DNA of 64,000 nt from an uncultured Acidobacteriaceae bacterium (GCA_963757515.1 CAVWRV010000005.1:39870-103869), one strand, 5' to 3'. Counted from the stretch's first letter, positions 12,842 to 64,000 are shown. Program-made: numbers and translations. The notes: a model not told the origin generated them from the letters alone.

Positions 12842-12882
12842 CCAGCTGGAGGGTCACATAACATCGTGATCACGCAAATGCG

Positions 12883-13150
12883 TTAAGAATCTTGACCTGC
12901 CACGAACCCGGGTGCCCCATACCCCCGATTTCCTGTAGAGCTTGTTGGGTTCCGCGGACTTCATGCGCCTTTCGCATATGCAGCCCTTGCCAGCGCCGCG
13001 TGCAGGAAATTCGGGGTATCTCGCTCGTTTTCGCGAGATGTGGGGGGCGAACGTTGGTCGCCCCTTTACAACCTGGACGGATACCAGTCGCAGTGCAGTG
13101 GAATCCCACATCTCGCGAAAACGAGCGAGATCTGGGGCACCCGGGGTTCT
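12883..13150. repeat. R1-family composite palindromic element, module order L-Y-X-R
   Basis: Outer inverted ends …cttgacctgccacgaacccgggtgccccat / …ggggcacccgggg. Module Y is bounded by acccccgatttcctg…caggaaattcggggt. Module X is bounded by atctcgctcgttttcgcgagatgtgggg…cccacatctcgcgaaaacgagcgagat. Compare 59148-59502. Confidence 0.8.
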
Positions 13151-38603: not shown

Positions 38604-38797
38604 GGGGTTCTCAGGCTGCGAAAAAGTCGCTCTCTGGGGAATTGTGGGTGCCCCATATCTCGCGCTTTTTGCGAGATGTGGGAAAGAAACTCAACTAAAA
38701 ACAGAACCCGTCGGTAACCGGCCGCTTTTCCCACATCTCGCAAAAAGCGCGAGATAAGGGGTACCCACAATTCCCCAGAGAGCGACTTTTTCGCAGC
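38604..38797. repeat. R1-related element: ~40-bp terminal inverted repeats enclosing an X-type palindromic module
   Basis: gctgcgaaaaagtcgctctctggggaattgtgggtgcccc (38604-38643) and its inverted partner ggggtacccacaattccccagagagcgactttttcgcagc (38758-38797). Inner module atctcgcgctttttgcgagatgtggg…cccacatctcgcaaaaagcgcgagat. Confidence 0.75.
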
Positions 38798-45008: not shown

Positions 45009-45247
45009 TGCTCTTCATCTAGTACCTCCTGGCTCTTGGGCGATGGCTGATTCCGGCCGAATGTTCTGGTTCTTCGGGAATAAGAATCGGAGTTGGCGAT
45101 GGAGGAGAACATCTCCGTCAAAGCTGAGAAATGCTGCACCCAAATTGGCTGAACGATACATTCCGCAGCGTCATTTGCCATGTACTCCTTCATCTGCGGG
45201 GAGAATTTTTGTGTACGGAGGAGTCTCATGTCAATGGCTAGCCGGTT

Positions 45248-45790
45248 TTACGACCTGCCGGGCCGAGAAACCAGAAGACGGCCCCCTGAGGCAAGTGTGA
45301 GCCGGGACGGCGGCGAGATCGCACTCAGATTCAACGCATTTAGATGCGCTGCCTCACGGCCACCCAAGACAACAACTGCTTCGTAATCGCCTGACGGGAC
45401 TTCAGAGAATGCGAAGCTGCCGTCCACAGCAGTGCGCGCCACCAGTTCGCCATGTCCGCCGACCAAGTGTATCTCTGCTGAGCGCAGCGGCCGACCGAAC
45501 GCATCGGTCAGAGCTCCCTTCCATGCACTTGCCTCACCAGCCGGCAATTGCGTCTTCAGGTAAACGGACCGTTCATTTGGATTCTGCGTTGGTATGTAAA
45601 CAATGGGGTTTTGTCCGCCAACAACATTCCTGCTCTCGGGTAATATCGCCGGCGCGTGGACTTTGATGGGTTCGCGGCTGCGGCCGGCCAGGGGGGAGGC
45701 TGTCGTTCGCTCGCTCCCACTGAGGTGGACCCGGAAGCCTCCTCGGGCTCTGATCGGGCAAAGAGTAAGGCGCTCTCTTGAATTGAACAA
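45248..45790 (-). pseudogene. partial duplicate (C-terminal CarboxypepD_reg-like domain only) of gene 51589..52545
   Basis: Nucleotide block 45241-45752 is ~90% identical to 51582-52088. The N-terminal 45 codons are unrelated. Confidence 0.5.
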
Positions 45791-47838: not shown

Positions 47839-49676
47839 ATGCGATACGTGTGTCTGTTTGCACTGCTCACCTCGACGCTGTGGGCTCAAGATGGCGCCGC
47901 GATTTATAAGGAGCGTTGCGCGTCCTGCCATGACACGCCCGCGGCGCGTGTTCCATCACTTGAGCACGATAAAAGCCATGAGCGGCGAAGCCATTTACCT
48001 GGCCCTTACGCGCGGCGTCATGAAGACTCAGGCAGAGGGCCTCTCCACCGCTCAAATCTTCGGCCTGCTCGGCTACATCGCGCCCACCGGCGACGCCGCC
48101 GCGGCCGCCCCGCAAGTGACGCCCACGTGCCAAACTCAACCGCCGTTTCCCGTCAGCGCACGAACCCCCGAATGGAACGGCTGGAGCACAAGGATTACTA
48201 ATTCGCGTTTCCAGGACGCCGCTTCCGCCGGTCTTACCGCCGGCGATCTGGGCAGACTCAAGCTCAAGTGGGCGTTCAACCTCGGCGATGTAACGGAAGC
48301 GCGGTCGCAGCCTGCGGTTCTCGGGAGATACGTGTTCATCGGTGCCACGACCGGAGCACTCTACGCACTTGATGCCGATTCCGGCTGCACCATCTGGGGA
48401 TTTCGCGCCGCTTCCGGTATCCGTGGCGGTGTCGCCATCGGTGACGCCGCCGGCACAGCCGCCGTATTCTTCTCCGATAGGGCTGCAAATGTGTATGCGC
48501 TCAATGCGAAAACGGGTAAGTTGATCTGGAAGGTTCGCCCCGTCGATCACTTCGCCACGATGGCCACCGCCACGCCCCGCTATTACAACGGCGTGCTGTA
48601 CCAGGCATTCGCTTCTTTTGAAGAAGCCATCGGCGGCGATCCCAAATACCAGTGCTGCACTTTTCGTGGCAGCGTGGTGGCCCTCAATGCCGCTAACGGC
48701 GATAAGTTGTGGCAAACCTTTACCATTCCCGATCCCGCCGGGCCCACGCGCATGAGTCCCGCGGGCACGCAGCAATACGGCCCCTCGGGAGCCGGCGTCT
48801 GGGCGACTCCGACCATTGATGAGCAACAGGGCGCTCTCTACGTTGCTACCGGGGACAACTATTCCGACCCGCCGACCAACACGAGCGACGCTGTTCTTGC
48901 CATGGATCTCAAAACCGGCAAACTCCTCTGGTCAGCGCAACTCACCAGCAACGACGCCTTCAACAACGCGTGCTGCTATGCCCATACCCGGGAATTGCCC
49001 TGCGACGCACGGTTCTGACTCACGACTTCGGCCAGCCGCCGATCCTCCTCAACTTTAGGCGCAGGCAAACGAGCCTTAGTGATCGCACAGAAGTCCGGCA
49101 TGGCGTATGGCCTCGATCCCGACGCAAAAGGCAAGATGCTCTGGCAGACGCGGGTAGGAAAAGGAGGAACATTCGGAGGCAGCCAGTGGGGTTCGGCGTC
49201 GGATGGGGCAAAGGTCTATGTCGCCATCTCCGATCTTGCAATGGGCGCAGTACCGGATCCGAAATCGGCTAAGGGCTATCGGTTCGTTCTGGATCCTCAC
49301 AAGGGAGGCGGACTCTACGCCCTTGAATCTCGAACCGGCAAGATCGTGTGGAGTGCGCCGGCTACGCCCTGCGACGCCGTCGCGAACTGGCTGTTCGCCT
49401 GCGCAATCTGCCGCTGTTACCGCTATTCCAGGCGTGGTCTTCTCCGGTTCGGTGGACGGCCACCTACGCGCTTATTCATCCTCCACGGGCAGGGTTCTAT
49501 GGGATACGGATACCGCGCGCGACTTTCCCGCGGTAAACGGCAAACCCGCGAATGGGGGCTCGATAGACGGTGCGGGTCCGGCTATCGTCAATGGCATGAT
49601 CTTCGTCAACTCCGGTTACGGCCAATGGGGCGGCATGTCTGGAAATGTGCTCTTGGCTTTTTCCGTGCAGTGAAAG
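47839..49676 (+). CDS. PQQ-dependent quinohemoprotein dehydrogenase (N-terminal cytochrome c + 8-bladed PQQ propeller), split over four frames
   Basis: CASCHD heme c site (47839 frame). PQQ-propeller repeats …GALYALDADSGCTIW…, …NVYALNAKTGKLIW…, …GGLYALESRTGKIVW…, …GHLRAYSSSTGRVLW… distributed over ORFs 47834..49018, 49079..49714 and 49203..49673. Confidence 0.65.
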
Positions 49677-49972
49677 AAGACGGCGGCTCGGGGCTCGATA
49701 TCGATCCCCTGTAGTCTTTGAGCTGTATCTTCTCTGGAGGAGGTCGTTCACGGCGACTGGGGCCACTTGTCTATATAGTCGGCATCTCGTCAACTTGGCC
49801 GGTAACATTCCGCTTTGTCCCCCATCTGGCAGGCACTTCTCCGAGCAGCCGGTTATTCGGCCACTTGCCAAAATTATAGAGCGACCCTGGCAGCGGAATG
49901 TCACAGTCTATGTAGTATGCTATATATTGAGTGCTTGTATAACACTGGCATGGTAGGTGTTGGCGCGGAGGA

Positions 49973-51451
49973 TTGATGCGTATACTCGCCCCCAAGCAGT
50001 TTGCACTCATGGCATTGCTTTGTTCCATAACACCACTTGCGCATGCGCAGAATGCAGTCGTATCTGCACCGGACATCGAGCAGCGAGTTCAACATGTCAT
50101 TACGGGCCTGACTGGCGGCGTGGTGATTAAAGGCAATGAGCACGCGACTCAAACGCTTGCCAATCGAATGACGGAACTCAGGGTTCTTGGCGTGAGCATC
50201 GCAGTCATTCATCAGGGAAAGATCGAATGGGCGCGTGGCTTTGGTGTGCGCAGCCTGGGTGGACCGCCCGTCACCGCCGATACGATGTTTCAGGCCGCCT
50301 CTATCAGTAAGCCGCTTGCGGCCATGGCGGCTTTGCGTATGGTGCAGGAAGGAAAGCTTTCGCTGGATGCTGACGTAAGTACCTACTTAACCAGCTGGAA
50401 GTTTCCTGCCGACCCCGTTGCTATGGGAAAGCCCATAACGCTGCGAGAGTTGTTGACACATACGGCTGGAACTACCGTACACGGATTTCCCGGGTACGCC
50501 ACAGATGAGCCCGTCCCGACGTTGCTACAGGTGCTCAACGGTGAAAAGCCTGCGAATACACCGGCGATCCGCAGCGAAGCGGCGCCTGGGGTTGATTGGA
50601 AGTACTCAGGCGGCGGATACACCATCATGCAGCAGGTTCTAATCGATGCCAGCAAAGAACCCTTCCCCAAACTAATGAGGGCCTCGGTGCTAATACCTAT
50701 CGGTATGACGCACAGCACGTATGAGCAGCCCCTGCCGCAGGCTCTTCAAGATTTCGCCGCTACTCCTTATCGGGCCGACGGCAAACCTGTTGAAGGTGGA
50801 GCGCACACCTACCCCGAAATGGCAGCAGCTGGTTTGTGGACAACCCCGAGCGAACTGGCACGCTACGCACTTGAAGTCGAGCAATCCCTCGAGGGGAAAG
50901 CGAATCACGTTCTGTCGATCGAGATGACACGACAGATGCTAACGCCAGGTATCGGACACTGGGGTCTAGGCCTCGAGATCGGCGGGACAGATTCCAACCC
51001 ATACTTCTCACATGGCGGAGCGAACGCGGGTTTCAGGAATATCTTCGTGGCATACGAGAAGAGTGGCGATGGCGCTGTCGTCATGACCAACAGTGACGCC
51101 GGCGGTGAGTTGGGCGACGAAGTCATGCACAGCATCGCCGACGAATACGGGTGGCCTGACTTTCGTTCTACTATCCGTGTAGCCGTCCGGATCGATCCCA
51201 AGATCCTGGCCCAATACGTCGGAACTTTCGAGCTTCGGAAAGGATTCGACTTGGTTGTTACGTTGGAGGGTAGCCAGTTGATGATTCAGGCGACTGGTGA
51301 GGGAAAAGATCCACTCTACGCCGAAACAGAGACGAAGTTTTTTCCAACCGTTGTCCCAGCGGAAATCGAGTTCGTCCAAGATGGCCAAGGCAAGGTGACC
51401 CATCTCGTTCTGCATCGGAACGGGCACGACATAAAGGCGCCGAAGAAGTAG
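49973..51451 (+). CDS. beta-lactamase-fold serine hydrolase (class C / esterase-like)
   Basis: Signal peptide. S-x-x-K motif ASISKPLAA. Y-x-N-like and downstream motifs. Confidence 0.85.
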   Translation: MMRILAPKQFALMALLCSITPLAHAQNAVVSAPDIEQRVQHVITGLTGGVVIKGNEHATQTLANRMTELRVLGVSIAVIHQGKIEWARGFGVRSLGGPPVTADTMFQAASISKPLAAMAALRMVQEGKLSLDADVSTYLTSWKFPADPVAMGKPITLRELLTHTAGTTVHGFPGYATDEPVPTLLQVLNGEKPANTPAIRSEAAPGVDWKYSGGGYTIMQQVLIDASKEPFPKLMRASVLIPIGMTHSTYEQPLPQALQDFAATPYRADGKPVEGGAHTYPEMAAAGLWTTPSELARYALEVEQSLEGKANHVLSIEMTRQMLTPGIGHWGLGLEIGGTDSNPYFSHGGANAGFRNIFVAYEKSGDGAVVMTNSDAGGELGDEVMHSIADEYGWPDFRSTIRVAVRIDPKILAQYVGTFELRKGFDLVVTLEGSQLMIQATGEGKDPLYAETETKFFPTVVPAEIEFVQDGQGKVTHLVLHRNGHDIKAPKK

Positions 51452-51588
51452 CCGGCCCGGGCATGGAGGCCGCTAGTGGACGAATACCGGACCGTGTACG
51501 AATATTGCTGAAGGGCTGATGAGTCCTGAAAAACGCCCCGTAGCCACTTGGTCCTATAGTCGGCATTTCGGACACTAGCTAGCCGGTT

Positions 51589-52545
51589 TTACGGCAACTT
51601 GCCGGGCCGAGAGACCAGAAGACGGCCGCCAGAGGCAAGTGTGAGCCGGGACGGCGACGAGATCGCACTCAAATGCAGCGCATTTAGATGCGCTACCTCA
51701 CGGCCACCCAAGACAACAACTACTTCGTAATCGCCTGACGGGACTTCAGAGAATGCGAAGCTGCCGTCCCCAGCAGTGCGCGCCACCAGTTCGCCATGTC
51801 CGCCGATCAAGTGTATCTCTGCTGAGCGCACCGGCCGGCCGGACGCATCGGTCAGAGCTCCCCTCCATGCACTTGCCTCACCAGCCGGCAATTGCGTCAG
51901 GTACACGGCCCGTTCATTTGGATTCTGCGTTGGTATGGAGACAATGTGGTTTTGTCCGCCGACAACATTCCTGCTCTCGGGTGATATCGCCGGCGCGTGT
52001 GACTTTGATGGGTTCGCGGCTGCGGCCGGCCAGGGCCGAGGCTGTCGTTCGCTCGCTCCCACTGAGGTGGACCCGGAAGCCTCCTCAGACCCGCTCATGG
52101 GTGTATCTGGGGTCGTCGCTCGATTGAGTCGTTCCACCACCGCTTCAATCGGAGACATCCGTCCATTCGAACCCGGGACGGGCAGGTGAGCGATCGACCG
52201 GCTCAGCAAAAATCCAAAGGCAACGATTGTGGCCAGCGACAGCGTGCCGCCGAGGAGAATCGATCCACGCCCTATCGGTTCCTCGTCCAGAACCTTGAAG
52301 CAGGGAATACCCTCGGCATTGGGTGAAAGCGACGCTGCTTCTGTCGCCGCATAGGAGTTCCGGTAAGCCTGCGGGAGTCCGACTAAAACGTCCGCCACCA
52401 GGTCCCACAAGAGGCGGGCCCTTTTGAAAAAACCTGTCTCGTCGCGGAGACGGTCCCGAATCAATTGGAGCGCCTCACCCTCGTATTCCTTACGGAACCT
52501 CGAAGGATACAGACGAAACAGGCGAGTGTACATCTTCTCAGACAT
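51589..52545 (-). CDS. PadR-associated membrane-anchored protein with C-terminal carboxypeptidase-regulatory-like domain
   Basis: 318 aa. Central TM (ILLGGTLSLATIVAFGFLL). C-terminal AEIHLIGGHGELVARTAGDGSFAFSEVPSGDYEVVV. 8-nt overlap with the PadR gene. Confidence 0.7.
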   Translation of the reverse strand: MSEKMYTRLFRLYPSRFRKEYEGEALQLIRDRLRDETGFFKRARLLWDLVADVLVGLPQAYRNSYAATEAASLSPNAEGIPCFKVLDEEPIGRGSILLGGTLSLATIVAFGFLLSRSIAHLPVPGSNGRMSPIEAVVERLNRATTPDTPMSGSEEASGSTSVGASERQPRPWPAAAANPSKSHAPAISPESRNVVGGQNHIVSIPTQNPNERAVYLTQLPAGEASAWRGALTDASGRPVRSAEIHLIGGHGELVARTAGDGSFAFSEVPSGDYEVVVVLGGREVAHLNALHLSAISSPSRLTLASGGRLLVSRPGKLP

Positions 52546-52888
52546 AATCCCCCCTCAGGATTTTTCGGGCTCGCGCAACACGCAAAACGTCCGCCATCTT
52601 TTCCGCCTCCGATCGCGCCATTTTGCGGCCGGCTACGGTCAACCGGTAATAGCGGCGGCGCTCTGAGCGTACGTCGAGGTTCTCCGGCCGATCAACCTCC
52701 TCGATCAGCTTTCCCTCAAGGAGCGTTTGGATGGAACCATACAGGGTTCCCGGCCCAAGGCGAAGACGCCCGCCAGTCTGCTCCTCAACCTGCCGCATGA
52801 TTGCGTATCCGTGCAGGTCGCCATCGGCCAGGGCAAGCATAATCTGGAACGCAGCGGAGGGTAGAGGATGAAGTTTCCGTTTTGGCAT
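52538..52888 (-). CDS. PadR-family transcriptional regulator
   Basis: …FQIMLALADGDLHGYAIMRQVEEQTGGRLRLGPGTLYGSIQTLLEGKLI…. Confidence 0.9.
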   Translation of the reverse strand: MPKRKLHPLPSAAFQIMLALADGDLHGYAIMRQVEEQTGGRLRLGPGTLYGSIQTLLEGKLIEEVDRPENLDVRSERRRYYRLTVAGRKMARSEAEKMADVLRVARARKILRGDYV

Positions 52889-53261
52889 TGTTCCTCGATA
52901 ATCGATATATCGATGAACGACTGTATATCCGCTCGATGCTACTTGTCAACCGACCTTGAATCGTGCCTGATTGTGGATTTAAGGGGTCGCCGTTCCGAAC
53001 GAGCACACAAGACAGAGGGCTGCGAATGTCGGGTCAACGCGGACTCGACGTTGGCGAGAGCCACCTAAGAACTAGCCAGCCCTCCTCTGCTCGCTTAGTG
53101 TTCGAGATGCCGGTTATACGTCCACATGCCAGAGACATAGACGATTGGACGACTCAGTGACTTTGCCTGAAGTCAACAGTTGAGCCAAGGCGAGAAGCCG
53201 GGTTCAACCAGGCTTCCGCCGCCACCTTTAGCTGTATCTCTCGCATGACCATCTCAAAACG

Positions 53262-53780
53262 TCAAATTCCTATTTCGCCTGTGCTAGCCCCAGCAATAAC
53301 CGCAGCAATTTTATCGAGTATCTGGTTCCAGCCCTCCAATTGCCCGCTATTCTTTGCGCTCTCCATGGGTTCATTTCCAATGTGGGTGAGTTTCGTCTGG
53401 CCGTTCCCAAGATCCTCAAAGATGGTCACGTCGTACGCACCGTCTATGGCCTCATGTTCTATTCCTAATTGCGCAGGCTCAACCTTGTTTCCCTCCGAGT
53501 CCGAAAAGTACATGGAGGAAACGATCTTCTCGTGCAGAACAATCTCGTGGTATTCAACCGCATTCCAGAACTCCTGCCCATCCGGCGCCTTCATGCAGTA
53601 GAGAGATTTTCCCCCAACGCGAAAATCCATCTGACAAACCGGAGCAGTAAAGCCCTTCGGTCCCCACCACTGCATCACGTACTTCGGGTCTGTCCACGCC
53701 TTCCAAACCAACTCGCGTGGGGCATCAAAAACTCTTGTGACAACCATCCGCTCAATTTCGCTAACCGTGTTTTCTGCCAT
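53262..53780 (-). CDS. SRPBCC-superfamily protein, AHSA1 (activator of Hsp90 ATPase)-like
   Basis: RVFDAPRELVWKAWTDPKYVMQWWGP signature of the AHSA1/SRPBCC family. Confidence 0.8.
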   Translation of the reverse strand: MAENTVSEIERMVVTRVFDAPRELVWKAWTDPKYVMQWWGPKGFTAPVCQMDFRVGGKSLYCMKAPDGQEFWNAVEYHEIVLHEKIVSSMYFSDSEGNKVEPAQLGIEHEAIDGAYDVTIFEDLGNGQTKLTHIGNEPMESAKNSGQLEGWNQILDKIAAVIAGASTGEIGI

Positions 53781-54114
53781 CTCTGACCTCCTCTTTCTTC
53801 ATTTGATTTACAACTACATCCAGTTTGTCGAAGCTCTCTTCCCAGAATCGGCGATAGCTAATCGCCCAGTCGCTGACTGTCTTGATCGCCTCTGGCCTAA
53901 GTGTGCACACACTCTCTCGTCCACGCTTCGTCTTGATCACAATCCGCGCCCGCACTAGGTAGGCAATATGTTTTGAAATCATCTGCTGTGAGAGTGCAAA
54001 CGGTTCCGTCAATCCATGCACAGAGGCTGGCCCGTGGGAGAGTCGTTCGATCATTGCCCGGCGGGTTGGATCAGACAAAGCCGCAAATGTTGTACCCAGA
54101 TTATCCACAACCAT
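53761..54114 (-). CDS. ArsR/SmtB-family transcriptional regulator
   Basis: …FAALSDPTRRAMIERLSHGPASVHGL…SQQMISKHIAYL… Overlaps the downstream SRPBCC gene by 20 nt. Confidence 0.8.
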   Translation of the reverse strand: MVVDNLGTTFAALSDPTRRAMIERLSHGPASVHGLTEPFALSQQMISKHIAYLVRARIVIKTKRGRESVCTLRPEAIKTVSDWAISYRRFWEESFDKLDVVVNQMKKEEVRDGRKHG

Positions 54115-54628
54115 ATAGTTGTGGATCGCATGGTCAATGTCAAGTGTGAATTTTGCGATTCTTGATTTCTGTTCCCTGATCTCTGAACCCTGACACCTGC
54201 GCTGATTGATACTCCGCGTAGGAAGGCGAGCCGGCAAGGGTTATGGCGCTGGCATCAGGGGCAGGAGGAATGTGGACTGTCTCTGGAACCTTCTCGGTGT
54301 CTCACCGCCCTGTTCGGCAAGTGATCTTTGCCAGACGACTCGCTAGGACCTACGCGGTGAGTGGTAAATCGCCAACGCCCTCACCGACGACGATGTGCCT
54401 CCACATGGACGAAAAGTCGGCAAATCGGACAGTTGACCGTGAGCCGGGCCCCAACGGTCCGGACAGCTAACGTTCCTCGGACAGGTGGATTTCGGATTCC
54501 CGTTAACTACTGGCGGCGTGAATAGGTCTCTCCTGGTCGCTGGTATTCATTGCTCAAGGCGGCCCGGCCCGGCGTACCGTTGACCGGGAAACAACTTTAA
54601 GAGAAGAGTTTGCCGAACCTCTCCCCGT

Positions 54629-55465
54629 CTATACCTTTGGCATAAAGTGATCGGCCGAATCGAGATCGGTGACCACTCCGCTATGGATCCCAAATAGATC
54701 GGGCGATGCCAGATCGCTGGCCAGTTCTATTTCGGTATCAACCGAGGTCGGCTTTCCTTCGATGGCGGCGTTCTCGCGCATCAGTTCTACCTGGGCCTGG
54801 ATACGTTTGAGGTCGCTCTCATTCTCCCGCAGCAGCCGGTCTCGATTGCGCAGATTCTCCAGCCGCCGTTCCAGGATAGCGACCGTTGCTTGCTGCGAGC
54901 GGACCAGGGCCGCCGATTGGTTTGGAGCTGCACTGCCTTGTTTCAGGTCTGCAATGGAGCGCTCCAGACCTTCCCCGGACTCAAGACCAAGCTCGTTGGT
55001 CAGGTGGTCACGCGCGACCAAAAGCTTGAGGAATATCCATTGCAGCTTTTCCAGGCTTGCCCTGGTGCCGGCCATGAGCTGGGCATCGACGCCGAGCTTT
55101 TGATAGATGGAGAGCACCCGTGCCGAGCTTGCCTGCAGGCCGTTCAATCTTGTTTGCAGGTCGGCAGGCAGGGCTGCGATCAGGGCTGCCCGCCGGGAGG
55201 CCGCATCCTCGAGCGCAGGAGCGGCGGATCGGGAATCAACTACTTTTTGAAATCGCGGATTGAACGCCAGCGCGGAAACAACAATTGTCTCCAGTCCCAG
55301 GGCGGCGAGCCAGATACTGGGCTCAACGAAGCCGAGCACTCCCAGGCCGAACACGCCCATGGCGTTGACCGGCACGCGGCCGAGACCAGGCACGGGCACG
55401 CCGACCAGAAACGCCGCCTTGAGGTAGCGCCACATAGAACCGCTAGGAGCGCGTCCTCTCGCCAT
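54629..55465 (-). CDS. membrane protein with two N-terminal TM helices and long coiled-coil (PspA-operon partner)
   Basis: 278 aa. Hydrophobic N-terminus. Heptad-rich C-terminal half. 23-nt overlap with the pspA-like gene. Confidence 0.6.
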   Translation of the reverse strand: MARGRAPSGSMWRYLKAAFLVGVPVPGLGRVPVNAMGVFGLGVLGFVEPSIWLAALGLETIVVSALAFNPRFQKVVDSRSAAPALEDAASRRAALIAALPADLQTRLNGLQASSARVLSIYQKLGVDAQLMAGTRASLEKLQWIFLKLLVARDHLTNELGLESGEGLERSIADLKQGSAAPNQSAALVRSQQATVAILERRLENLRNRDRLLRENESDLKRIQAQVELMRENAAIEGKPTSVDTEIELASDLASPDLFGIHSGVVTDLDSADHFMPKV

Positions 55466-56189
55466 CGGGCGTGCTCACCGACGGGAGGGTTTCGATGGCG
55501 CCGCTGCCGATCTGCTGCGGTTGTTGTTTCGCTTCAAATTGAGCCAGCGCCTGTTCGGCCAGGGCACTCTGTTCCGCTTCCCGGATGTGGACATCGTGCA
55601 GGTCAAGGCTGTCGACCGCGACCCGCACCCGGCCCGCCGCCTTGTACCGCTCTTCGTTTACCATCTCTTCCAGCCGGTTAAGCGTCTCGCCGCTGCCGCC
55701 CAGCTCGGTGACCATGCCTGAAGCCATTTGCGTAATCTCGGCCATAGCCCGCTTCATCTTCAGATCACTGATGCCCGATTTGAGGGACTCGATCTTCTGC
55801 CGGGCAATCGAAATGGCAACATCGCGGGCCCGCACCAATTCCTTGTAAGTGGTCTCCGCTTGCTCCATCTGCTTGCGGTTCTCGTCCAGTTCCCGCTCGA
55901 CCGTCTGCAATCGGAGGGCATAGCGGCCGGCCGCCGCGCGATCACCCACCTTCAGATTCGCACTGGTCCTGGCGCGAAGATCGTTTTCGTCGCTTTCCAG
56001 CTTGCGCACCTGGGCAATCAGCCTTTCGACCAGGCCCGCATGCGCAGCCAGGCCGCTGTTGAACTTGCCAATCTGCTTGCGCAGGTTTTCCTGTTCGACT
56101 TCCAGAAGCGCCTCAGGATTCTCCCGTTCGAGGCCCGAAATGAACAATCCGAAAAAACCGTAGAACAAGTTCGATATTCGACGGAACAT
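55443..56189 (-). CDS. PspA/IM30 (Vipp1/LiaH) family protein
   Basis: GGAGA SD before ATG (56189). MFRRISNLFYGFF…ENPEALLEQ… N-terminus and continuous coiled-coil characteristic of PspA/IM30. Confidence 0.85.
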   Translation of the reverse strand: MFRRISNLFYGFFGLFISGLERENPEALLEVEQENLRKQIGKFNSGLAAHAGLVERLIAQVRKLESDENDLRARTSANLKVGDRAAAGRYALRLQTVERELDENRKQMEQAETTYKELVRARDVAISIARQKIESLKSGISDLKMKRAMAEITQMASGMVTELGGSGETLNRLEEMVNEERYKAAGRVRVAVDSLDLHDVHIREAEQSALAEQALAQFEAKQQPQQIGSGAIETLPSVSTPDGERTRS

Positions 56190-56199
56190 ATTGGATCTC

Positions 56200-57392
56200 C
56201 TAGTGAGCTTCGCGGCGCTGCCAGCTCGCGAGCAGGTTAGTGACAACTTCGGCCTTGGGCGCGGCGCATATCCTGCCGAGGTCTATCTTAATGCCATTGG
56301 TTTGATAGCGGGTCCAGGGAGAGTCCGGGGTCCTGGTGGGCACGTTCGGGTTGGCCGGCCGAAAGCCGTGGTTGATCGATTCCCGCTGCACCGGTTCGCT
56401 CAGCAGAAAGTCGGAGAAACGCCTGTGCCGCTTGGCGCTGGTCGTCCGAGCTCCAGGACGCGTTCAGTATGTAATACGGGTTTTCATTCCAGATGTTGTA
56501 CTCGGGATAAATCACGTGAATCGGTCCCCACCGGCCTTCTGCGTTCTTGAGGTAGTCGATGGCCACGCTCTCGTAAACCAGCAGGGCGTCGTAGCTGGAT
56601 GGACCCTTCAGCACCATCTCGCGCATCAGGTTGCCGGTGCTGTTGGAGTCGCTGCTGGCGGCCGATTCCAGCTGCGATAACCAGGCTTGAAACTTGATGT
56701 CGGTGACTTCGCCAACGGTAAGGTCGTCGGTCTTCTTGAAGTAGTTGTGGCCTGCCAGCAGCAGTGCAAGAATGCCGGAGTTCGAGTCTCCCGGATTGGT
56801 GTGGCCGAACTTGAACAGCCCCCAGTCCGGCTGTTTGCCGATGGTCTGCCATCCCCCGGGTTCATGCAGCGCACGATTGACGGTGTCGAAGTCGACCGCG
56901 CCGTAATGCTGCTTGAATGCCTGGTAGCGCTCTTCCCACATCACAAAAACCATCGGTGTCAGGGCCAGCGGTTCTTCCTTGAGAATGGGGTTCGGAACCA
57001 TACTTTGCCTGCCAGTCCTCCACGAACGTGTTTTTGTAGACAGCGCTCGCGGGCGACCACACGTCGATGCGCTTATCCCCGGAGAGCGCCGCATGCGCTC
57101 CTTCCAGCGAACCCATGGGAATGAGGTCCACTTGAATGTGCTTTCCCTCGGGAGTCGATTTAAATTCCTCGACCGCCGCTTCCAGCCACTTTTGCTTTTC
57201 CGTTCCATAGGCGATGCCGATTTCGACGTTCTTGCTATCGCCGGTCAGGACGTTGCCGGCATTCAGCGCGGCCGGGAGAACATGGCGCCGTTGAGCCAGC
57301 CAATAGGCGCCGGCGACACAACCGACGACGAACAGGGCAATGACTGTTTTGCCTAACCACGTGAGCGAAGGGCGATCGGTGTTGTTGGCCAT
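56200..57392 (-). pseudogene. membrane-anchored PBP2-like (periplasmic-binding-fold) protein, paralog of the upstream gene, with at least two frame disruptions and no VWA domain
   Basis: Pieces in ORFs 56862..57392, 56288..57208 and 56200..56391 align in order to gene 57396..59085 (…YGTEKQKW…, …FKFGHTNPGDSNSG…, …HGFRPANPNV…). Shift at a G4/C4 run near 56995. Confidence 0.5.
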
Positions 57393-57395
57393 GGA

Positions 57396-59085
57396 TTAGA
57401 AGAAAGTGGAGATGTCGCGAAACACTTCTACGATATTGGTCGGTGTTCCATCGTAGGCTTTGCCCTGGGTGGAGTCGGCGATCTGCTGCAGTACATCCCG
57501 CCGGGCGTCATGCCCGTAGGCGATGGTAAAGATGCGAATAGTATGGGTCTCGGCGTCAGGGTGAATCTTTGCCAGCAGCTGATCAAGGGTTTCCGTACTC
57601 TTGTTATCCTCCCCGTCGGTGAGCACCACGAGGGCGCGGATATGATCGCCAGGCTGCTGCAGCAAATGCGCATAGCCTTGATCTACGGCGTCGTAAAGAG
57701 CAGTCTGGCCGGCGGGAAAGACGGAGTCGATCGCGGTATCGGAGACCTGGCGTCCCTGGGCCGCAGGCTGATCCTGGCTGGCCCAGGCCGCGGTGGTGTT
57801 GAACGGTAGCAGGGAGAAATCGTCCTTGTCGCTGAGCAGCGAAACCAGCTGTTTCGCCCCCGCCTTGGCTGCAGACATTTTGTCCTCTTCCCGCATGCTG
57901 CCGGAGGTGTCGAGCACCAGCACAATGTCTGCTGCCTTCTTCTCGTCGTTGTCCCATTGCTGCTGCAGGGCCGCGATCACCTCGGAAGACGGCACCTCCA
58001 GGGTGGTGGTGGGTTGCTTGGGATCAACCCCGTGCGCGGCATCGATCGGCGGCCCGACGGCAACATCGGGTGAGCCGGGACGAAAGCCGTAGGTCATTGC
58101 CTTCTCCTGCTGCGGACGGCCGAGCAGGTAGCGAATGTAAATCTGCGCCGCTTCCTGCCTTTCCGGGGTCACCCAGGGGCGATTCACAATGCCGACCGGA
58201 TGATCGCTCCAGAACGTGCCTTCGCGAGGATAAATCGCCACCACCGGGAACGGCATGGAGCTGACTTTGGCATACGACTCGACCACCATGCTCTCGTACA
58301 ATACCGCAGCGGATAAATATTCCGGGCCGCTGTCGAATAGTTTTCGGCCAAAGAAGCCGGTAGAACTGCCATAGTGCACAACGGAATTCTCGATGCCGCT
58401 GACAAAAGCGCGCGTCTTGGGATTTTGCACATCGGCGAGCGTGAGCCCGCGTACTTTTCCGGTGGCGGCATAGTTCTCGGCGATGAGGGAAATGATGCCG
58501 CTGTTGCTGTACGCCGGGTGGGTGTGGCCGAACTTGAAGCTGCCCCATTGGGGAAATCCATAGGTGCTCCAGCCTTTCTTGTCTCGTGCCAGGGACAGGA
58601 TGTCCGCCCAGCCGATGGGCTTCTTTCCCCAGCCGATGGCTTCGGCCATCGGCTTCCACATAGCAATCACGACCGGCGAAAGCAGCAGGTTTTGCGTGGC
58701 GCCAATCAAATCCTGGCCCGTGGCGGCGCGAGATTTTGCGTTCCCGAGCTTGATGAACACATTCGAAGCCGGGCTGGTGAGATCGTCCTGTTCCGCGCCG
58801 CTCAGTACATCATCGATGCATTCGCCAGACCCCTTTGGGATGGCTTTCACCAGGATTCGTCTTGCCGCCGGCCGTCCGTGCGCCGCTTTGATTGAAAGCG
58901 GCGGTTACGTCGTCAATCCACTTCTGCTTTTCGGAGCCGTAGGAGAAGAGCAGCTGAATCTCATCTTTTGAAGTTTGTTGCTGGGGGCCGCTTTGGCGGG
59001 CGGTCTCCGTCTTCGACCGGCAGCCAAGCTGGAGCGGGAGTAAGGCGGTAAGGAGGAGCAGCACAGAAACCTTACGACTTGTCAT
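57396..59085 (-). CDS. lipoprotein with PBP2-like (PhnD/SsuA-like binding fold) domain fused to a C-terminal von Willebrand factor A domain; one apparent 1-nt frameshift near 58865
   Basis: Lipobox LQLGC. PBP2-like region (…SYGSEKQKW…, …FKFGHTHPAYSNSG…). VWA MIDAS motif VLVLDTSGSM and …LTDGEDN…. Confidence 0.65.
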
Positions 59086-59147
59086 CTATTTCCCCGCTTC
59101 CAAGGATACTCGATGTGGCGGATCTAGCCTGGATCGCGCAATGGCGC

Positions 59148-59502
59148 TAAGAATCTTGACCTACTACGAACCCGGGGTGCCCCATATCTCGCTCGTTTTT
59201 GGCGAGATGTGGGGGGCGACCGTTGGTCGCCCCTTTACCACCTGGACGGATACCAGTCGCAGTGCAGTGGAATCCCACATCTCGCGAAAAACGAGCGAGA
59301 TACCCCGAATTTCCTGCACGCAGCACCGGACAAGACCACTTGTGCGCCTTTCTTTAAGGAAAGGCGCATGAAGTTTGCGGAACCCACTAAGCTCCTCCGG
59401 AAATCGGGGATATGGGGCACCCGGGTTCGTGGCAGGTTAATCGCAGGACGCTTTGTTACATCGCGGGATAAACGTGCATCTGTGTGACGCACTACACTAG
59501 CA
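59148..59502. repeat. R1-family composite palindromic element, module order L-X-Y(inverted)-R plus shared right tail
   Basis: Same L end, X module and outer R end as 12883-13150. The Y module is present as the reverse complement and on the other side of X. The right tail ggttcgtggcaggttaatcgcaggacgctttgt…cactacactag also occurs at 11057-11125. Confidence 0.8.
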
Positions 59503-59642
59503 CCGACTTCGGAGCCGCATGGAGTCGCGTGGGCGGGACGAGACGCGGGATCCCTCAGGCGCCAGCGGCCACTGGCCAGTAGACAATCGATTGATTATGA
59601 TGGCTGATCGAAAAGTTTGCCGGATGGAACGAGGAAATTCTC

Positions 59643-61049
59643 ATGAAAATGCATGTCGCCTGGCTTTTATTGTGTGCACTCCTAATCACATCTCACCGTG
59701 CATCAACCGCGCAGGAGGCGCCTGATGCCAGGCTGTGGTTGACGACTGCGGATCGCTCCGCGCTGCTCGCCGCGCAGAAGGACCCATTGCGCTTTTCTTC
59801 ACCCGCGAACGGGCTTCCGAACATCGACGTAAATGACATGCAGCAGTTCCAATCCATAGATGGCTTTGGTTTTGCTCTGACCGGAGGCAGCGCGCAGCTT
59901 CTCATGCGCATGGAGCCCGGCGCGAGGGCAGACCTGCTCAAGGAGCTCTTCGCAACCCAGGCCAACGACGTCGGGGTTAGCTACCTCAGGGTAACCATTG
60001 GGTCTTCCGACATGAATGAACGCGTGTATTCGTACGATGATTTGCCACCGGGTGAGACCGATGTGAATCTTGCCCGCTTCAGTCTGGGTCCTGACCGCGC
60101 TGACGTCATTCCGGTACTCAAGCAGATTCTGGGGATCAATCCCGCAATCAAAATCCTCGCCTCGCCATGGTCTGCCCCAGCGTGGATGAAGACGAACGAT
60201 CGGGCGAAAGGCGGCCACCTGAAGCCTGAGTACTACGGGCCGTACGCCGCCTACTTTGTGAAGTACATCGAGCAGATGAAGGCCGAGGGCATCTCCATCG
60301 CAGCCATCACGGTACAGAACGAGCCATTGAACCCCAAGAACACGCCCAGCATGGTGATGTTCGCTGAGGAAGAAGGCACGTTTATCGCCAAGTATCTGGA
60401 ACCGGCTTTTCGCAATGTGGGAACGACCACCAGGATACTCTTGTACGACCACAATCCGGACGTGCTTTCCTACCCTCTGTCGATCCTCGAGGACCCGGCT
60501 GCCGGCAAGTATGTCGATGGAACTGCTTTTCACTTATACGGCGGTGTGCCCTCCGCACTGACAGAAGTGCATAATGCGTACCCAAACAAGAATCTATACA
60601 TGACCGAGCAGGCGATCACCGGCCCTGAGGAGGAACCGCTTCCGATCGCCGCGGCTGTCAGCGGAGTGTTGATTGCCGCCACGCGGAACTGGAGCCGCAA
60701 CGTACTGCTCTGGAATCTCGCCGCCGACCCAAAGAATGGTCCCCACACCAACGACGGAGGATGCACAGGCTGCCAGGGCGCCGTCACTCTGGACGGCAAC
60801 CGCATTTCTCGTAATGTGGCGTACTATGCAGTCGCACACTTTTCCAGGTTTGTGCCACCGGGATCCGTACGCGTGGGGTCCAGTGAGCAGGAGCAGCTTG
60901 CATCGGCCGCGTTTCTCACCCCCGACGGCAAGATCGTGCTGGTGGCATCGAACACGGCCAACTTTCCCAAGAGCTTTAACGTGAAGTATCACGGCGTGTG
61001 GTTCACAACCATGCTGCCTGAGGAATCGGTGGGAACCTATGTGTGGTAG
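59643..61049 (+). CDS. glycoside hydrolase family 30 (glucosylceramidase/beta-1,6-glucanase/xylanase-like)
   Basis: Signal peptide. GH30 features …RVTIGSSDM…, …LASPWSAPAWMKTN…, catalytic-acid-region NEP. Confidence 0.9.
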   Translation: MKMHVAWLLLCALLITSHRASTAQEAPDARLWLTTADRSALLAAQKDPLRFSSPANGLPNIDVNDMQQFQSIDGFGFALTGGSAQLLMRMEPGARADLLKELFATQANDVGVSYLRVTIGSSDMNERVYSYDDLPPGETDVNLARFSLGPDRADVIPVLKQILGINPAIKILASPWSAPAWMKTNDRAKGGHLKPEYYGPYAAYFVKYIEQMKAEGISIAAITVQNEPLNPKNTPSMVMFAEEEGTFIAKYLEPAFRNVGTTTRILLYDHNPDVLSYPLSILEDPAAGKYVDGTAFHLYGGVPSALTEVHNAYPNKNLYMTEQAITGPEEEPLPIAAAVSGVLIAATRNWSRNVLLWNLAADPKNGPHTNDGGCTGCQGAVTLDGNRISRNVAYYAVAHFSRFVPPGSVRVGSSEQEQLASAAFLTPDGKIVLVASNTANFPKSFNVKYHGVWFTTMLPEESVGTYVW

Positions 61050-62778
61050 CAAAACGGGCCAGTGGGTGGCCACAACCGGTCTGATAGCCGCGCTGTTGGC
61101 GCACGCTGCCTCTGCTGCGATGGCCGCAAGCCGCAGAAAAACTGATCTGGGTCCGAATGTTTTTATCTTCGGCCCATCGATGCCGGCATCGGCCATTCAA
61201 CGCCGGATCAATGATGTCTACGCCCGGCAACACGACGAGTTCGGCGCTGAACGCGATGCCCTGATGTTTCTCCCGGGCGAATACAAAGTGGATATCCCGA
61301 TCGGGTTTTACAGCGAAGTGGTGGGCTTAGGAGCTTCTCCGGATGACGTGCGTATCGCAGGCAACGTGCACTCAGATGCGGCCTTACCGAACAACAACGC
61401 CACGACCACCTTCTGGAGAGCGGCCGAGGGTTTCTCTGTAACTCCGGCTGGGGGCACCATGCAATGGGCGGTATCGCAGGCAGCACCCTTTCGGCGCATG
61501 CACATTCGCGGCGATATTGTGCTCCATCAGCACGGTGGCTGGGCGAGCGGCGGTTGGATGTCTGACGACCTGATTGATGGCAACGTCGGTTCCGGTTCGC
61601 AGCAGCAATGGATCTCGAGAAACACCGAATGGGGCAGTTGGCGTGGCGCTAACTGGAACATGGTCTTCGTAGGCATCCCCAATCCGCCCGCGGGGCAGTG
61701 GCCTGTGCCCCCCTATACCGAGGTCTCCGAAACTCCGATTATTCGGGAGAAGCCGTTTTTGCAGGCCGATAAAGCGGGAAATTTGAGCGTCCGCATTCCT
61801 TCCCTGCGCACCCGGAGTGTGGGCATCACGTGGCACGGCGGGAACACGCCCGGGAGATCGATACCGATCAGCCGCTTCTACGTTGCCCGGCCAAATGCCG
61901 ATAGTGCCGTCACCATCAACGCCCATCTGGCCAAAGGGGAGAATCTGCTATTGACTCCCGGCATTTACAAGCTGACAGAAGCGCTCCGCATCTCCCGGCC
62001 CAACACGGTGGTGTTAGGACTTGGCTTCGCTACCCTGCAGCCGACCAACGGTACGGCGGCAATGGCTACCGCCGACGTGGATGGAATTATCGTTGCCGGT
62101 CTGCTGTTCGATGCCGGAGTAAAACAATCGCCGGTCCTTCTGGAAGTGGGCCCGGTGGGAAGCAAGGGTCGGCATCTTCAGAATCCGATTTCTCTTCATG
62201 ACGTCTTCTTCCGCGTCGGCGGCGCCGGCGTGGGCCGCGCGGAAGTCAATCTTCAGATCAACAGCAGCGACGCCATCCTCGATCACACCTGGATCTGGCG
62301 AGCCGATCACGGCTCAGGCGTGGGCTGGCTCAGCAACACCAGCGCCAACGGGCTTATCGTCAATGGAGATAACGTCACCGCTTACGGTCTTTTCGTGGAG
62401 CACCATCAGCAATTTCAAGTGCTTTGGAACGGAAACAACGGGCGAACTTATTTCTATCAATCCGAAATTCCGTACGATCCACCGGATCAGGCCAGTTACG
62501 GGAGCGCACCCGGTACAAACGGCTGGGCTGCTTACAAAGTATCGAATGATGTGACCAGCCACGAGGCTTGGGGCCTTGGGATCTACAGCGTCTTTCTGCA
62601 TCCCGGGGTCACGCTGACCCGTGCCATAGAGGTCCCAAAGACCCCCGATGTGAAGTTCAACCACATGATTACGGTTGCTCTGGGCGATTACGGCGAGATC
62701 AGTCACGTCATCAACGATTTGGGTGAAGCGGCCTCACTTCACCCGCGGGTCACACCTAAGGTCACGATTTATCCATAA
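61039..62778 (+). CDS. secreted right-handed beta-helix (pectate-lyase-fold) protein, putative glycoside hydrolase/lyase
   Basis: 579 aa. Signal peptide. Repetitive G/N/W-rich parallel-beta-helix-like segments. Overlaps the GH30 gene by 11 nt. Confidence 0.55.
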   Translation: MCGSKTGQWVATTGLIAALLAHAASAAMAASRRKTDLGPNVFIFGPSMPASAIQRRINDVYARQHDEFGAERDALMFLPGEYKVDIPIGFYSEVVGLGASPDDVRIAGNVHSDAALPNNNATTTFWRAAEGFSVTPAGGTMQWAVSQAAPFRRMHIRGDIVLHQHGGWASGGWMSDDLIDGNVGSGSQQQWISRNTEWGSWRGANWNMVFVGIPNPPAGQWPVPPYTEVSETPIIREKPFLQADKAGNLSVRIPSLRTRSVGITWHGGNTPGRSIPISRFYVARPNADSAVTINAHLAKGENLLLTPGIYKLTEALRISRPNTVVLGLGFATLQPTNGTAAMATADVDGIIVAGLLFDAGVKQSPVLLEVGPVGSKGRHLQNPISLHDVFFRVGGAGVGRAEVNLQINSSDAILDHTWIWRADHGSGVGWLSNTSANGLIVNGDNVTAYGLFVEHHQQFQVLWNGNNGRTYFYQSEIPYDPPDQASYGSAPGTNGWAAYKVSNDVTSHEAWGLGIYSVFLHPGVTLTRAIEVPKTPDVKFNHMITVALGDYGEISHVINDLGEAASLHPRVTPKVTIYP

Positions 62779-62918
62779 ATGACCCAATTCGCCCGACATG
62801 TTCTGCGGGTTAGATTCACAGATCAATTGAGCGTTCCGCTGGCATCGGCGCGGGGCGAGGCTCTCGCTATAATAGAAGTGGTGTTGTCCGCCTGAAACAG
62901 TGCGGAGCAATCGCAGCC

Positions 62919-64000
62919 ATGCTCAAGACCACCAGGGAAGAAATGACGACAGCGCAGCAACATCCTCTGCAAAAGATCCTCGAAAGTCGAATCGCCATCA
63001 TCGACGGAGCGATGGGTACGACTATCCGCACCTACGGCATGAAGGAAGCCGACATCCGGGGGGAGCGCTTCAAGGACTCGACCAAGGACCTGCTGAACAA
63101 CGGAGACCTCTTCTCCCTCACCCAGCCGGACATGATCTGTGACATCCATCGCCGGTTTTTGGAAGCCGGGGCGGACATCATCGAGACCAACACCTTCGGC
63201 GCGACCAGCATCACCCAGAGCGAATTCTTCGTGGAGGATCCGCGCGAGCACGGCGGCCGCAAGGATCCCGACTTCTACCAAAAGGTCATCGATGATCCGT
63301 TCCTCAACGGCCTGGCCTGGGAGATCAATGAGAAGTCGGCGCAGCAATGCCGTCACGTGGGCCGATCGTGTAGCGAGCGCAACCTCGCGTCAACGTTTCG
63401 TGGCGGGAGCGATCGGGCCGCTGACCGTGTCTCTCTCCAACTCGCCCGATGCCGATGACGCAGGCTTCCGGGTAGTCACCTTCGATCAGGTCAAAGCCGC
63501 CTACAAGCACCAGGTGCGCGCCCTCATCGCCGGCGGTGTAGATCTGCTCCTGGTAGAGACCATCTTCGACTCGCTCAATGCCAAGGCGGCGCTGGTCGCC
63601 ATCCGTGAGGTTTTCGACGAGGACGGCAAGCAACTGCCGGTGATGATCTCCGCGGCGGTAGGGCGTGGCGGCGAGACGCTGATCTCCGCCCAGACCACCG
63701 AGGCCTTCTGGAACGCGGTGAAGCACGTGAAGCCGCTGTCAGTAGGGCTCAACTGCTCTCTCGGCCCCGATCTGATGTATCCCTTCCTGGAAGAGCTTTC
63801 GGAGAAGGCCAACGTAGCGATCTCCTGCTACCCCAACGCCGGTTTGCCGAATCCGCTGTCGGAAACCGGGTTCGATCTGGGGCCGCAGGACATGGCTCGC
63901 TATCTGGGTGAATTTGCCAAGGGAGGCTGATCAATATTGCCGGCGGCTGCTGCGGCAACACCCCGGAGCACATCGCGGCGATCGCCAAAGCGCTCGAAGG
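62919..64000 (+). CDS. metH: methionine synthase (B12-dependent), N-terminal homocysteine-binding region; partial at window end with two apparent frameshifts
   Basis: …IAIIDGAMGT…, …DIIETNTFGA…, …RFVAGAIGP…, …LLLVETIFDSLNAKAA…, …LNCSLGPD…, …EFAKGG|LINIAGGCCGNTPEHIAAIAKAL distributed over three frames. Confidence 0.85.

Follow-up and report, generated by a model that had tools for sequence, protein, structure and literature searches.

A multi-phylum cluster of two paralogous solute-binding proteins, a PspA/IM30-family protein and a protein of an unnamed family, found in an uncultured Acidobacteriaceae bacterium

Why should a gene for a PspA/IM30-family protein lie in one tight row with genes for two solute-binding proteins (SBPs), and is such a neighbourhood more than an accident of a single genome? 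The question is raised by a locus on the minus strand of a 64,000-nucleotide (nt) stretch of DNA from an uncultured Acidobacteriaceae bacterium (GCA_963757515.1 CAVWRV010000005.1:39870-103869), the whole of which is referred to here as the window. Four coding regions span positions 59085-54629, and in the order of the genes, their strand, their end coordinates and their domains they agree with an original prediction made from the sequence alone. Gene 1 (57396..59085; 562 amino acids (aa) after deletion of one extra base) encodes a solute-binding domain joined to a VWA domain and is called SBP-VWA below; gene 2 (56200..57392; 396 aa after deletion of two extra bases) encodes a paralog with the solute-binding domain only; gene 3 (55443..56189; 248 aa) encodes the PspA/IM30-family protein and gene 4 (54629..55435; 268 aa), termed g4, a member of an unnamed family. 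With g4 starting at the ATG at 55435 the intergenic gaps are, from gene 1 to g4, 3, 10 and 7 nt, and the locus is a single closely packed cluster of four genes, as had been proposed. The cluster is conserved over at least four bacterial phyla, and its possible role at the cell envelope is weighed here against the alternatives.

Conservation of the cluster and its variable part

A scan of one genome per GTDB species, carried out with a 16-sequence SBP-VWA alignment, gave at least 594 confirmed stretches, of which 80 loci were kept, and the six-frame open reading frames (ORFs) of the loci were searched with hidden Markov models (HMMs) built from the cluster proteins. The loci belong to the Acidobacteriota (Terriglobia, Blastocatellia, Thermoanaerobaculia, Holophagales and Vicinamibacteria) and, outside that phylum, to Verrucomicrobiota, Planctomycetota, Desulfomonilaceae and a few others. 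Components were counted at the 62 loci where 4.8 kb or more of downstream sequence is available; here the SBP paralog adjoins SBP-VWA at 61, g4 is present at 51, PspA at 26 and an AAA+ ATPase at 27. The arrangement is far beyond chance, for the same gene order is found again in dozens of species-level genomes that belong to several phyla. The original prediction had named gene-neighbourhood conservation as one check to be made, and had allowed that the neighbourhood might not be kept in relatives or that ordinary SBPs might adjoin pspA by chance; what was found is an order kept over four phyla, well past the Acidobacteriota.

When each locus is written as a pattern of SBP paralog (S), PspA (P), g4 (g) and AAA+ ATPase (A), with a dash for absence, two arrangements predominate, S-g- at 24 loci and SPgA at 23. 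The remainder are S--- (seven loci), SPg- (three; L006, L007 and L008), S--A (three, all Planctomycetes), S-gA (one) and ---- (one). The constant core of the cluster is therefore SBP-VWA, SBP and g4, whilst PspA and the ATPase act as an optional dyad, PspA coming after the paralog and before g4, which is followed by the ATPase; the ATPase accompanies PspA at 23 of the 26 PspA-bearing loci. The description of the locus as a PspA operon holds in so far as pspA is a member of the cluster, but not for the core.

The full form is best seen in Terriglobia contigs with a 63-64% identical SBP-VWA, in which five genes follow in a row: SBP-VWA, SBP paralog, PspA, g4 and an AAA protein of 562-563 aa (L002:11732-13423 and L004:11687-13375). 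The active domain of the relatives' ATPase is closest to the D2 domain of VAT/Cdc48/p97 (E=7e-40), and a tblastn search of the 64-kb window with the ATPases of L002 and L004 found nothing. Among the 62 loci the form seen in the window, PspA without the ATPase, is confined to its own Acidobacteriaceae lineage, the members being an uncultured Acidobacteriaceae metagenome-assembled genome (MAG; L006), an unclassified Acidobacteriota MAG (L007) and a Granulicella (L008). A neighbour-joining tree of SBP-VWA places these SPg- loci next to a clade of Terriglobia made up almost wholly of SPgA, so that the window form is most probably derived, by loss of the ATPase within the lineage. Elsewhere in the tree SPgA loci are scattered among S-g- loci, which implies repeated loss or repeated transfer of the PspA-ATPase dyad. 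Pairwise identities are correlated between the core proteins (SBP-VWA/SBP r=0.88, SBP/g4 r=0.60, SBP-VWA/g4 r=0.54), values to which species phylogeny contributes, and in Acidisarcina the locus tags ACPOL_5558 to ACPOL_5562 indicate adjacency of the cluster. Granulicella aggregans and Acidisarcina polymorpha are cultured carriers of the form with four genes, and the five-gene form would be found in a Chthoniobacter or Terriglobia strain.

Some loci depart from these arrangements. At L027, L029, L037 and L068 (Blastocatellia and one other MAG) a g4 homolog of more diverged sequence is encoded divergently, upstream of SBP-VWA instead of downstream of the paralog. At three Planctomycetes loci (L059, L071 and L073) g4 and a recognisable PspA are missing; L059 has, between the SBP paralog and the ATPase, an ORF for a 285-aa coiled-coil protein (L059:11005-11859) with a PspA-like N-terminus (MFRAIWRYFRAIGYM...), which is recognised neither by Pfam nor by the cluster HMMs.

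The encoded proteins

The product of gene 1 begins with a signal peptide and a lipobox-like LQLGC ending at Cys22 (59020..59085), followed by the solute-binding domain (aa 49-335, 58080..58941), supported by Pfam and by Foldseek matches of an AlphaFold2 (AF2) model, and the VWA domain (aa 386-545, 57450..57929; Pfam VWA E=2e-13). Its Pfam scores of 37.0 bits for SBP_bac_11 (gathering score 25), 42.2 bits for SBP_bac_8 and 51.3 bits for VWA (PF00092; 23.8) are all above the gathering scores. The predicted VWA domain with its DTSGS motif (57897-57911) is borne out, and the metal ion-dependent adhesion site (MIDAS) is complete, with D392, S394, S396, T461 and D490 all present; in 60 diverse SBP-VWA representatives, with only 29-60% identity, these residues are kept in 59, 59, 53, 50 and 53 sequences respectively. 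All of the 36 Terriglobia homologs share Cys22 and have typical lipoprotein signal peptides whose hydrophobic region mostly ends in G/S-C and is followed by R/K. The core lipobox pattern is matched by 23 of the 60 diverse members, and the LQLGC of the window, with Gln at -3, falls outside the PROSITE pattern. Because of this atypical residue, gene 1 is only probably, not certainly, a lipoprotein gene.

The AF2 model of P0001, an intact 562-aa protein that stands in for gene 1, has a predicted local distance difference test score (pLDDT) of 76.8. On its VWA side the closest Foldseek matches are ITIH, integrin I domains, BatB (3ibs) and the calcium-channel alpha2-delta, and on the binding-protein side there are matches to FbpA (7w3w), the sulfate-binding proteins 5um2 and 1sbp, which rank among the best there, AfuA, HitA and FutA. 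SBP-VWA proteins carry the Joint Genome Institute (JGI) name 'Ca-activated chloride channel homolog' (K07114). Four distant homologs (P0250, P0331, P0335 and P0371) bear N-terminal extensions of 450-780 residues.

The gene 2 product scores 58.4 bits with SBP_bac_11 against the threshold of 25. Genes 1 and 2 had been described as paralogs, and their sequences agree with this: the reconstructed proteins align across the frameshift sites discussed below with 32% identity over 347 aa (E=1e-50). The fold was misassigned in the original prediction. A PhnD/SsuA-like fold is ruled out by the match of the domain to SBP_bac_11/SBP_bac_8 and by its relatives FbpA, Sbp, AfuA and SubI; phosphonate/sulfonate models of the PhnD/SsuA type gave no match in the Pfam or NCBIfam scans. 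A profile of 27 paralogs searched against PDB sequences found sulfate-binding proteins only (1sbp, E=3.7e-4; 5um2, E=4e-3; SubI 6ddn, E=0.011). The NCBIfam sulfate/thiosulfate models score far under their cut-offs (TIGR00971, 16.8 versus 155.5; NF008106, 13.0 versus 308), and the binding proteins are not orthologs of the transport proteins. The loops that match the anion sites of sulfate-binding proteins are highly conserved in both paralogs (G196 in 58, E264 in 60, T290 in 57 and R335 in 57 of 60 sequences), which would argue for a retained ligand pocket.

No gene for an ABC permease or ATPase occurs in the window cluster or in L001-L004, in keeping with what had been reported of the window. 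ORFs with both a Walker A and an ABC signature motif were found at just 6 of 85 loci and never at a fixed position, and it is therefore unlikely that the two proteins serve transport. The N-terminal anchor of gene 2 (57294..57359) is conserved as the motif P.LT.LGK..I.LF..C..GAY in the alignment of the 27 paralogs, which come from several phyla. Its Thr11 is present at 22 of 22 loci with g4 and at none of five without, so that the anchor motif covaries with the presence of g4; this covariation is suggestive and is confounded with phylogeny. At a Lentisphaerales locus (L065:9401-11578) the SBP paralog has a long, apparently cytoplasmic, N-terminal extension ahead of its membrane anchor.

Gene 3 was recognised by the Pfam model PspA_IM30 (PF04012) over profile positions 2-218 of 220, with 38.5 bits against a gathering score of 33.9; the PspA of the relative L004 reaches 41.6 bits, and a phmmer search of gene 3 against PDB sequences gave nothing at E<=0.01. 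By its profile match the protein is a divergent PspA/IM30, as predicted. Its N-terminal segment MFRRISNLFYGFFGLFISGL has a hydrophobic moment of 0.52 on the Eisenberg scale and is predicted to form an amphipathic alpha0-type N-terminus. The cluster PspAs are 55-64% identical between Acidobacteriota, Verrucomicrobiota and Planctomycetota and share an N-terminus that is almost identical over the phyla (MF.R..NL.RGF..LFISGLE.QNPEALLEVE), and they are a subfamily of orthologs dedicated to the cluster and moving together with it. The reported lack of the usual partners was confirmed: neither Pfam nor NCBIfam found PspB, PspC, PspF, LiaI, LiaF or Toastrack in the four cluster proteins, and no Psp/Lia partner occurs among the called neighbours within about 8 kb, for which the Pfam labels of L001 were used together with scans of four genes lying downstream.

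The start of g4 had been placed so as to overlap pspA, at the ATG at 55465. Since the N-terminus MWRYLKAAF is conserved and the homologs are mostly 264-269 aa long, the start is most likely the ATG at 55435, 7 nt past the pspA stop. The protein would then have an amphipathic stretch at its N-terminus, followed by a hydrophobic hairpin (aa 23-58, 55262-55369) and an all-helical C-terminal domain, and its AF2 model (pLDDT 74.6) is all helical, with a short N-terminal helix, hydrophobic helices at 23-34 and 40-57 and a helical domain. Glu49, which lies in the second of these hydrophobic helices, is kept almost without exception across the phyla. As the hairpin is bordered by basic residues at both ends and a signal peptide is absent, both termini, including the helical domain, are probably cytoplasmic according to the positive-inside rule. 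No match to g4 was found in Pfam, NCBIfam or the PDB. Its homologs number 716-804, every one of them unnamed; the 804 come from a multi-phylum profile search, in which none had a Pfam domain.

A possible envelope module and its alternatives

We tentatively propose that the region encodes a conserved four-protein envelope module in which a periplasmic pair is coupled through g4 to a dedicated PspA, a reading that we hold to be possible and a little short of probable. The two exported binding proteins would be a periplasmic receptor pair for a small anionic ligand, the pocket being kept in both, and the MIDAS site of gene 1 would in addition bind a protein or another component of the envelope. 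The anchored paralog would touch the g4 hairpin inside the membrane, and the cytoplasmic helical domain of g4 could then be the platform on which the cluster PspA docks, so as to stabilise or remodel the inner membrane at that site. The AAA+ ATPase of the relatives might recycle PspA or g4 assemblies, and g4 may itself scaffold or shape the membrane. A role in envelope sensing or membrane repair, as first suggested for the locus, would be a reasonable inference.

Several points weigh against this proposal. All of its coupling steps are drawn from gene order and sequence conservation. About half of the clusters are without PspA (26 of 62 loci have it), so that the core must have a function independent of PspA, and the docking of PspA on g4 is assumed. 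With lengths of 15 and 18 residues, the hairpin segments of g4 are short and possibly do not reach across the membrane. As g4 is predicted to expose almost nothing to the periplasm, its link to the binding proteins depends on the contact with the membrane anchor, for which the evidence is the small covariation of Thr11 (22/22 versus 0/5) that phylogeny confounds. The lipobox of gene 1, by its sequence, is atypical; the AF2 models, with pLDDT of 75-77, are moderate in confidence; and the frameshifts in genes 1 and 2 could be real.

A different function for the core is unlikely but deserves to be set out in full. The core could be a structural or adhesive periplasmic assembly and not a sensor, in which the MIDAS tethers the lipoprotein to a partner in the outer membrane or cell wall, the SBP folds act as scaffold and g4, with or without PspA, reinforces the inner membrane. 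VWA/MIDAS domains typically serve protein-protein adhesion, and the nearest structural matches of the gene 1 VWA domain, from ITIH and the integrin I domains to BatB and alpha2-delta, would suit such a role, as would the occurrence of the core without PspA in 24 of 62 genomes (S-g-) and the absence of any kinase, sigma factor or transcription factor from the conserved set. However, the anion-site-like loops are among the best-conserved positions in both paralogs, which argues that a ligand pocket is retained, and a partner for the VWA domain is not encoded within the cluster.

The second alternative concerns the state of the genes and not their function. Genes 1 and 2 had been described as the domains and order found here, but they are not intact ORFs, three frameshifts having been overlooked. 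Gene 1 is split into an ORF at 59085-58810 (91 aa, with the signal peptide ending in LQLGC) and one in a different frame at 58850-57396 (484 aa), and gene 2 is spread over three frames (57392-56862, 57208-56288 and 56391-56200). A gapped alignment to L001, an ENA metagenome contig with 98.1% nucleotide identity to window positions 49394-64000, places a single-base insertion at 58859 in gene 1 and two more at 56995 and 56411 in gene 2 (each +/-1), and the proteins of 562 and 396 aa were reconstructed by deleting one base at each site. Were the frameshifts real, genes 1 and 2 would be pseudogenes in a decaying cluster, which would accord with the loss of the AAA+ ATPase that came before, and it is true that genes 1 and 2 hold, in a space of 2.5 kb, all three of these independent +1 insertions, partly outside homopolymers, in a lineage from which the ATPase has already gone. 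We nevertheless regard decay as quite improbable.

All four genes are intact in L001 (562, 396, 248 and 278 aa as called), and genes 1 and 2 are also intact, at the same lengths of 562 and 396 aa, in L006, with 94% amino acid identity; neither stop codons nor larger deletions have accumulated, and the reconstructed gene 1 is 99% identical to P0001. The same type of insertion, moreover, splits a metH-like S-methyltransferase gene of the window (62919-63930, plus strand) into two frames at about 63353, and recurs, relative to L001, outside the cluster at 53291, 61956 and 62160. Conversely, GH30 and LAM55-like genes that are intact in the window are interrupted in L001, where about 15 single bases are inserted. 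Both assemblies look error-prone, and the window appears to stem from an error-prone, probably long-read, metagenome assembly. With intact genes in L001 and L006 as well, the three frameshifts are most likely assembly errors and not gene decay.

Still more doubtful is the reading of g4 as a very divergent, membrane-anchored ESCRT-III/Snf7-like protein, comparable to the 'SIG+TM+Snf7' of Ravi et al., which would make the cluster a two-ESCRT-III system. The all-helical structure and N-terminal amphipathic stretch of g4 would fit, as would the PspA found with an inactive-AAA+AAA protein in Text S2.2 and Table S3 of Ravi et al. (PMC11237479). Against this, no similarity was detected by any of the following methods: hhalign of g4 against the cluster PspA profile gave a probability of 1.2%, Pfam at E<=1 gave no support for six g4 members, the g4 profile gave none against PDB sequences, and the best Foldseek match in the PDB was to BAR domains at E=0.19, with CdvB2 at E of about 1. 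Finally, that the binding proteins serve ordinary ABC transport of sulfate, molybdate or iron and adjoin pspA by chance is scarcely credible: their SBP_bac_11/SBP_bac_8 membership and weak similarity to sulfate-binding proteins would allow it, but with the identical gene order kept over four phyla, the permease and ATPase missing nearby, the sulfate-model scores well short (16.8 versus 155.5), and a VWA fusion and conserved membrane anchor that are not transporter features, it is effectively refuted by the neighbourhood conservation already described.

The surroundings of the cluster may be described briefly. A scan for regulatory signals found no sigma-70-like promoter, and sites resembling terminators were about as frequent as chance predicts (6 against 5.8 expected); no Rfam family occurs within 53500-60000. 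PADLOC, applied with anti-phage defence in mind, gave no match for the four window proteins. An ArsR-type helix-turn-helix (HTH) gene and an AHSA1/SRPBCC gene (53262-54237, minus strand) lie 392 nt downstream of g4, an adjacency that is not kept in other lineages. Within the 558-nt intergenic region upstream of the cluster there is a repeated element (59130-59460) with internal inverted repeats (59185-59213 versus 59274-59302) and copies at 12868-13149, 11051-11101 and 38646-38682 of 80-96% identity; the element, over which L001 has a called ORF of 76 aa, could be akin to repetitive extragenic palindromes or miniature inverted-repeat transposable elements (REP/MITE-like). A 512-bp duplication (51578-52086 versus 45237-45744, 94% identity) sits within a gene whose product is a membrane protein of 318 aa containing a CarboxypepD_reg domain; between this gene and one for a PadR-family regulator (52538-52888) there is an overlap of 8 nt. 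Pairs of PadR and a partner are counted among PSP-associated systems by Ravi et al. (PMC11237479).

Comparison with known systems

The cluster resembles the PspFABC and LiaIH/LiaF systems in that an IM30-family effector is encoded beside a small integral-membrane partner that could recruit it to the membrane, but g4 is unrelated in sequence to the partners in those systems and the conserved set includes two periplasmic proteins. The solute-binding domain belongs to the same fold class as Sbp, CysP and SubI (1sbp, 5um2 and 6ddn), which are its only relatives in the PDB at the level of sequence; however, the similarity is very remote (E=4e-4 at best, and in the C-terminal lobe only), there is no transporter, and in the cluster one copy is fused to a VWA domain whilst the other is membrane-anchored. 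With BatA/BatB and YfbK (K07114) gene 1 shares a VWA domain with complete MIDAS in an envelope-associated protein, BatB (3ibs) being a top structural match, although the Bat context is lacking, MoxR and TPR partners being absent, and an N-terminal solute-binding domain is foreign to those families.

The means by which bacteria, without Vps4, target and recycle their PspA/IM30 polymers are a standing question, and it is one on which the cluster bears. A Vps4-like ATPase appears to be absent in bacteria according to a 2025 review (PMC7619361), and systems of vps4 with ESCRT-III occur in archaea and eukaryotes alone (Makarova et al., 2024; PMC10936438), the Cdc48/VAT kind being the clade from which Vps4 is thought to be derived (PMC10936438). 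As in the archaeal and eukaryotic ESCRT-III/Vps4 systems, the relatives of the window encode a member of the ESCRT-III superfamily, PspA, with a classical AAA+ ATPase, here of the Cdc48/VAT kind; the likeness observed is one of genes and includes neither a MIT domain nor Vps4 orthology. Unlike those systems, the window has no ATPase and the cluster has periplasmic components for which there is no ESCRT counterpart. A bolder proposal, which we consider unlikely at present, is that the SBP-VWA/SBP/g4 trio is a multi-phylum envelope-spanning device in which a periplasmic receptor for both ligand and protein controls PspA and, in the full form, the Cdc48-like remodelling ATPase. Were this so, the trio would be a bacterial functional counterpart of ESCRT-III/Vps4 with an outside-in trigger, and the window an ATPase-less derivative.

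The closest comparison is with the PspA-AAA operons of Ravi et al. (2024, mSystems; PMC11237479), in which, according to Text S2.2 and Table S3, PspA adjoins an 'inactive classical AAA + classical AAA' protein (for example AEY64321.1, OGG56892.1 and AKJ06548.1), partly together with a membrane-anchored divergent Snf7, a solute-binding protein (PBPB with or without OmpA) and ABC components. The cluster is like these in placing PspA beside a helical membrane-anchored protein, in having an exported solute-binding protein in the operon and in the absence of PspBC, PspF and Lia, and the classical AAA+ protein of the relatives, at about 560 aa, likewise has a non-matching N-terminal half. It differs in the SBP_bac_11 (Sbp-like) family of its binding proteins, in their occurrence as a paralogous pair and in the VWA fusion, as well as in its order, with the binding proteins first and PspA between the paralog and g4; ABC transporter genes are absent, g4 has no Snf7 or PspA similarity detectable in the tests run, and the window version is without the ATPase. 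There is no mention of vWA in the text and one supplementary file of that study, and in the literature searched no paper combines SBP_bac_11 with VWA in the present sense. The cluster is thus a variation on the PspA-AAA operons, with another SBP family, a pair, a VWA fusion, no transporter, another order and a partner that is not recognisably Snf7-like. All that the window itself contributes is the reduced form with four genes, in a sequence that apparently contains errors of assembly. The cluster family as a whole offers a defined and widespread context that joins a PspA dedicated to it, an ATPase of Cdc48-like type, a specific partner in the membrane and a putative periplasmic receptor pair. 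It gives a setting to two large sets of proteins now called 'hypothetical' or 'Ca-activated chloride channel homolog' in soil Acidobacteriota, Verrucomicrobiota and Planctomycetota, and includes natural variants, without PspA and the ATPase or without the ATPase alone, against which the full form can be compared.

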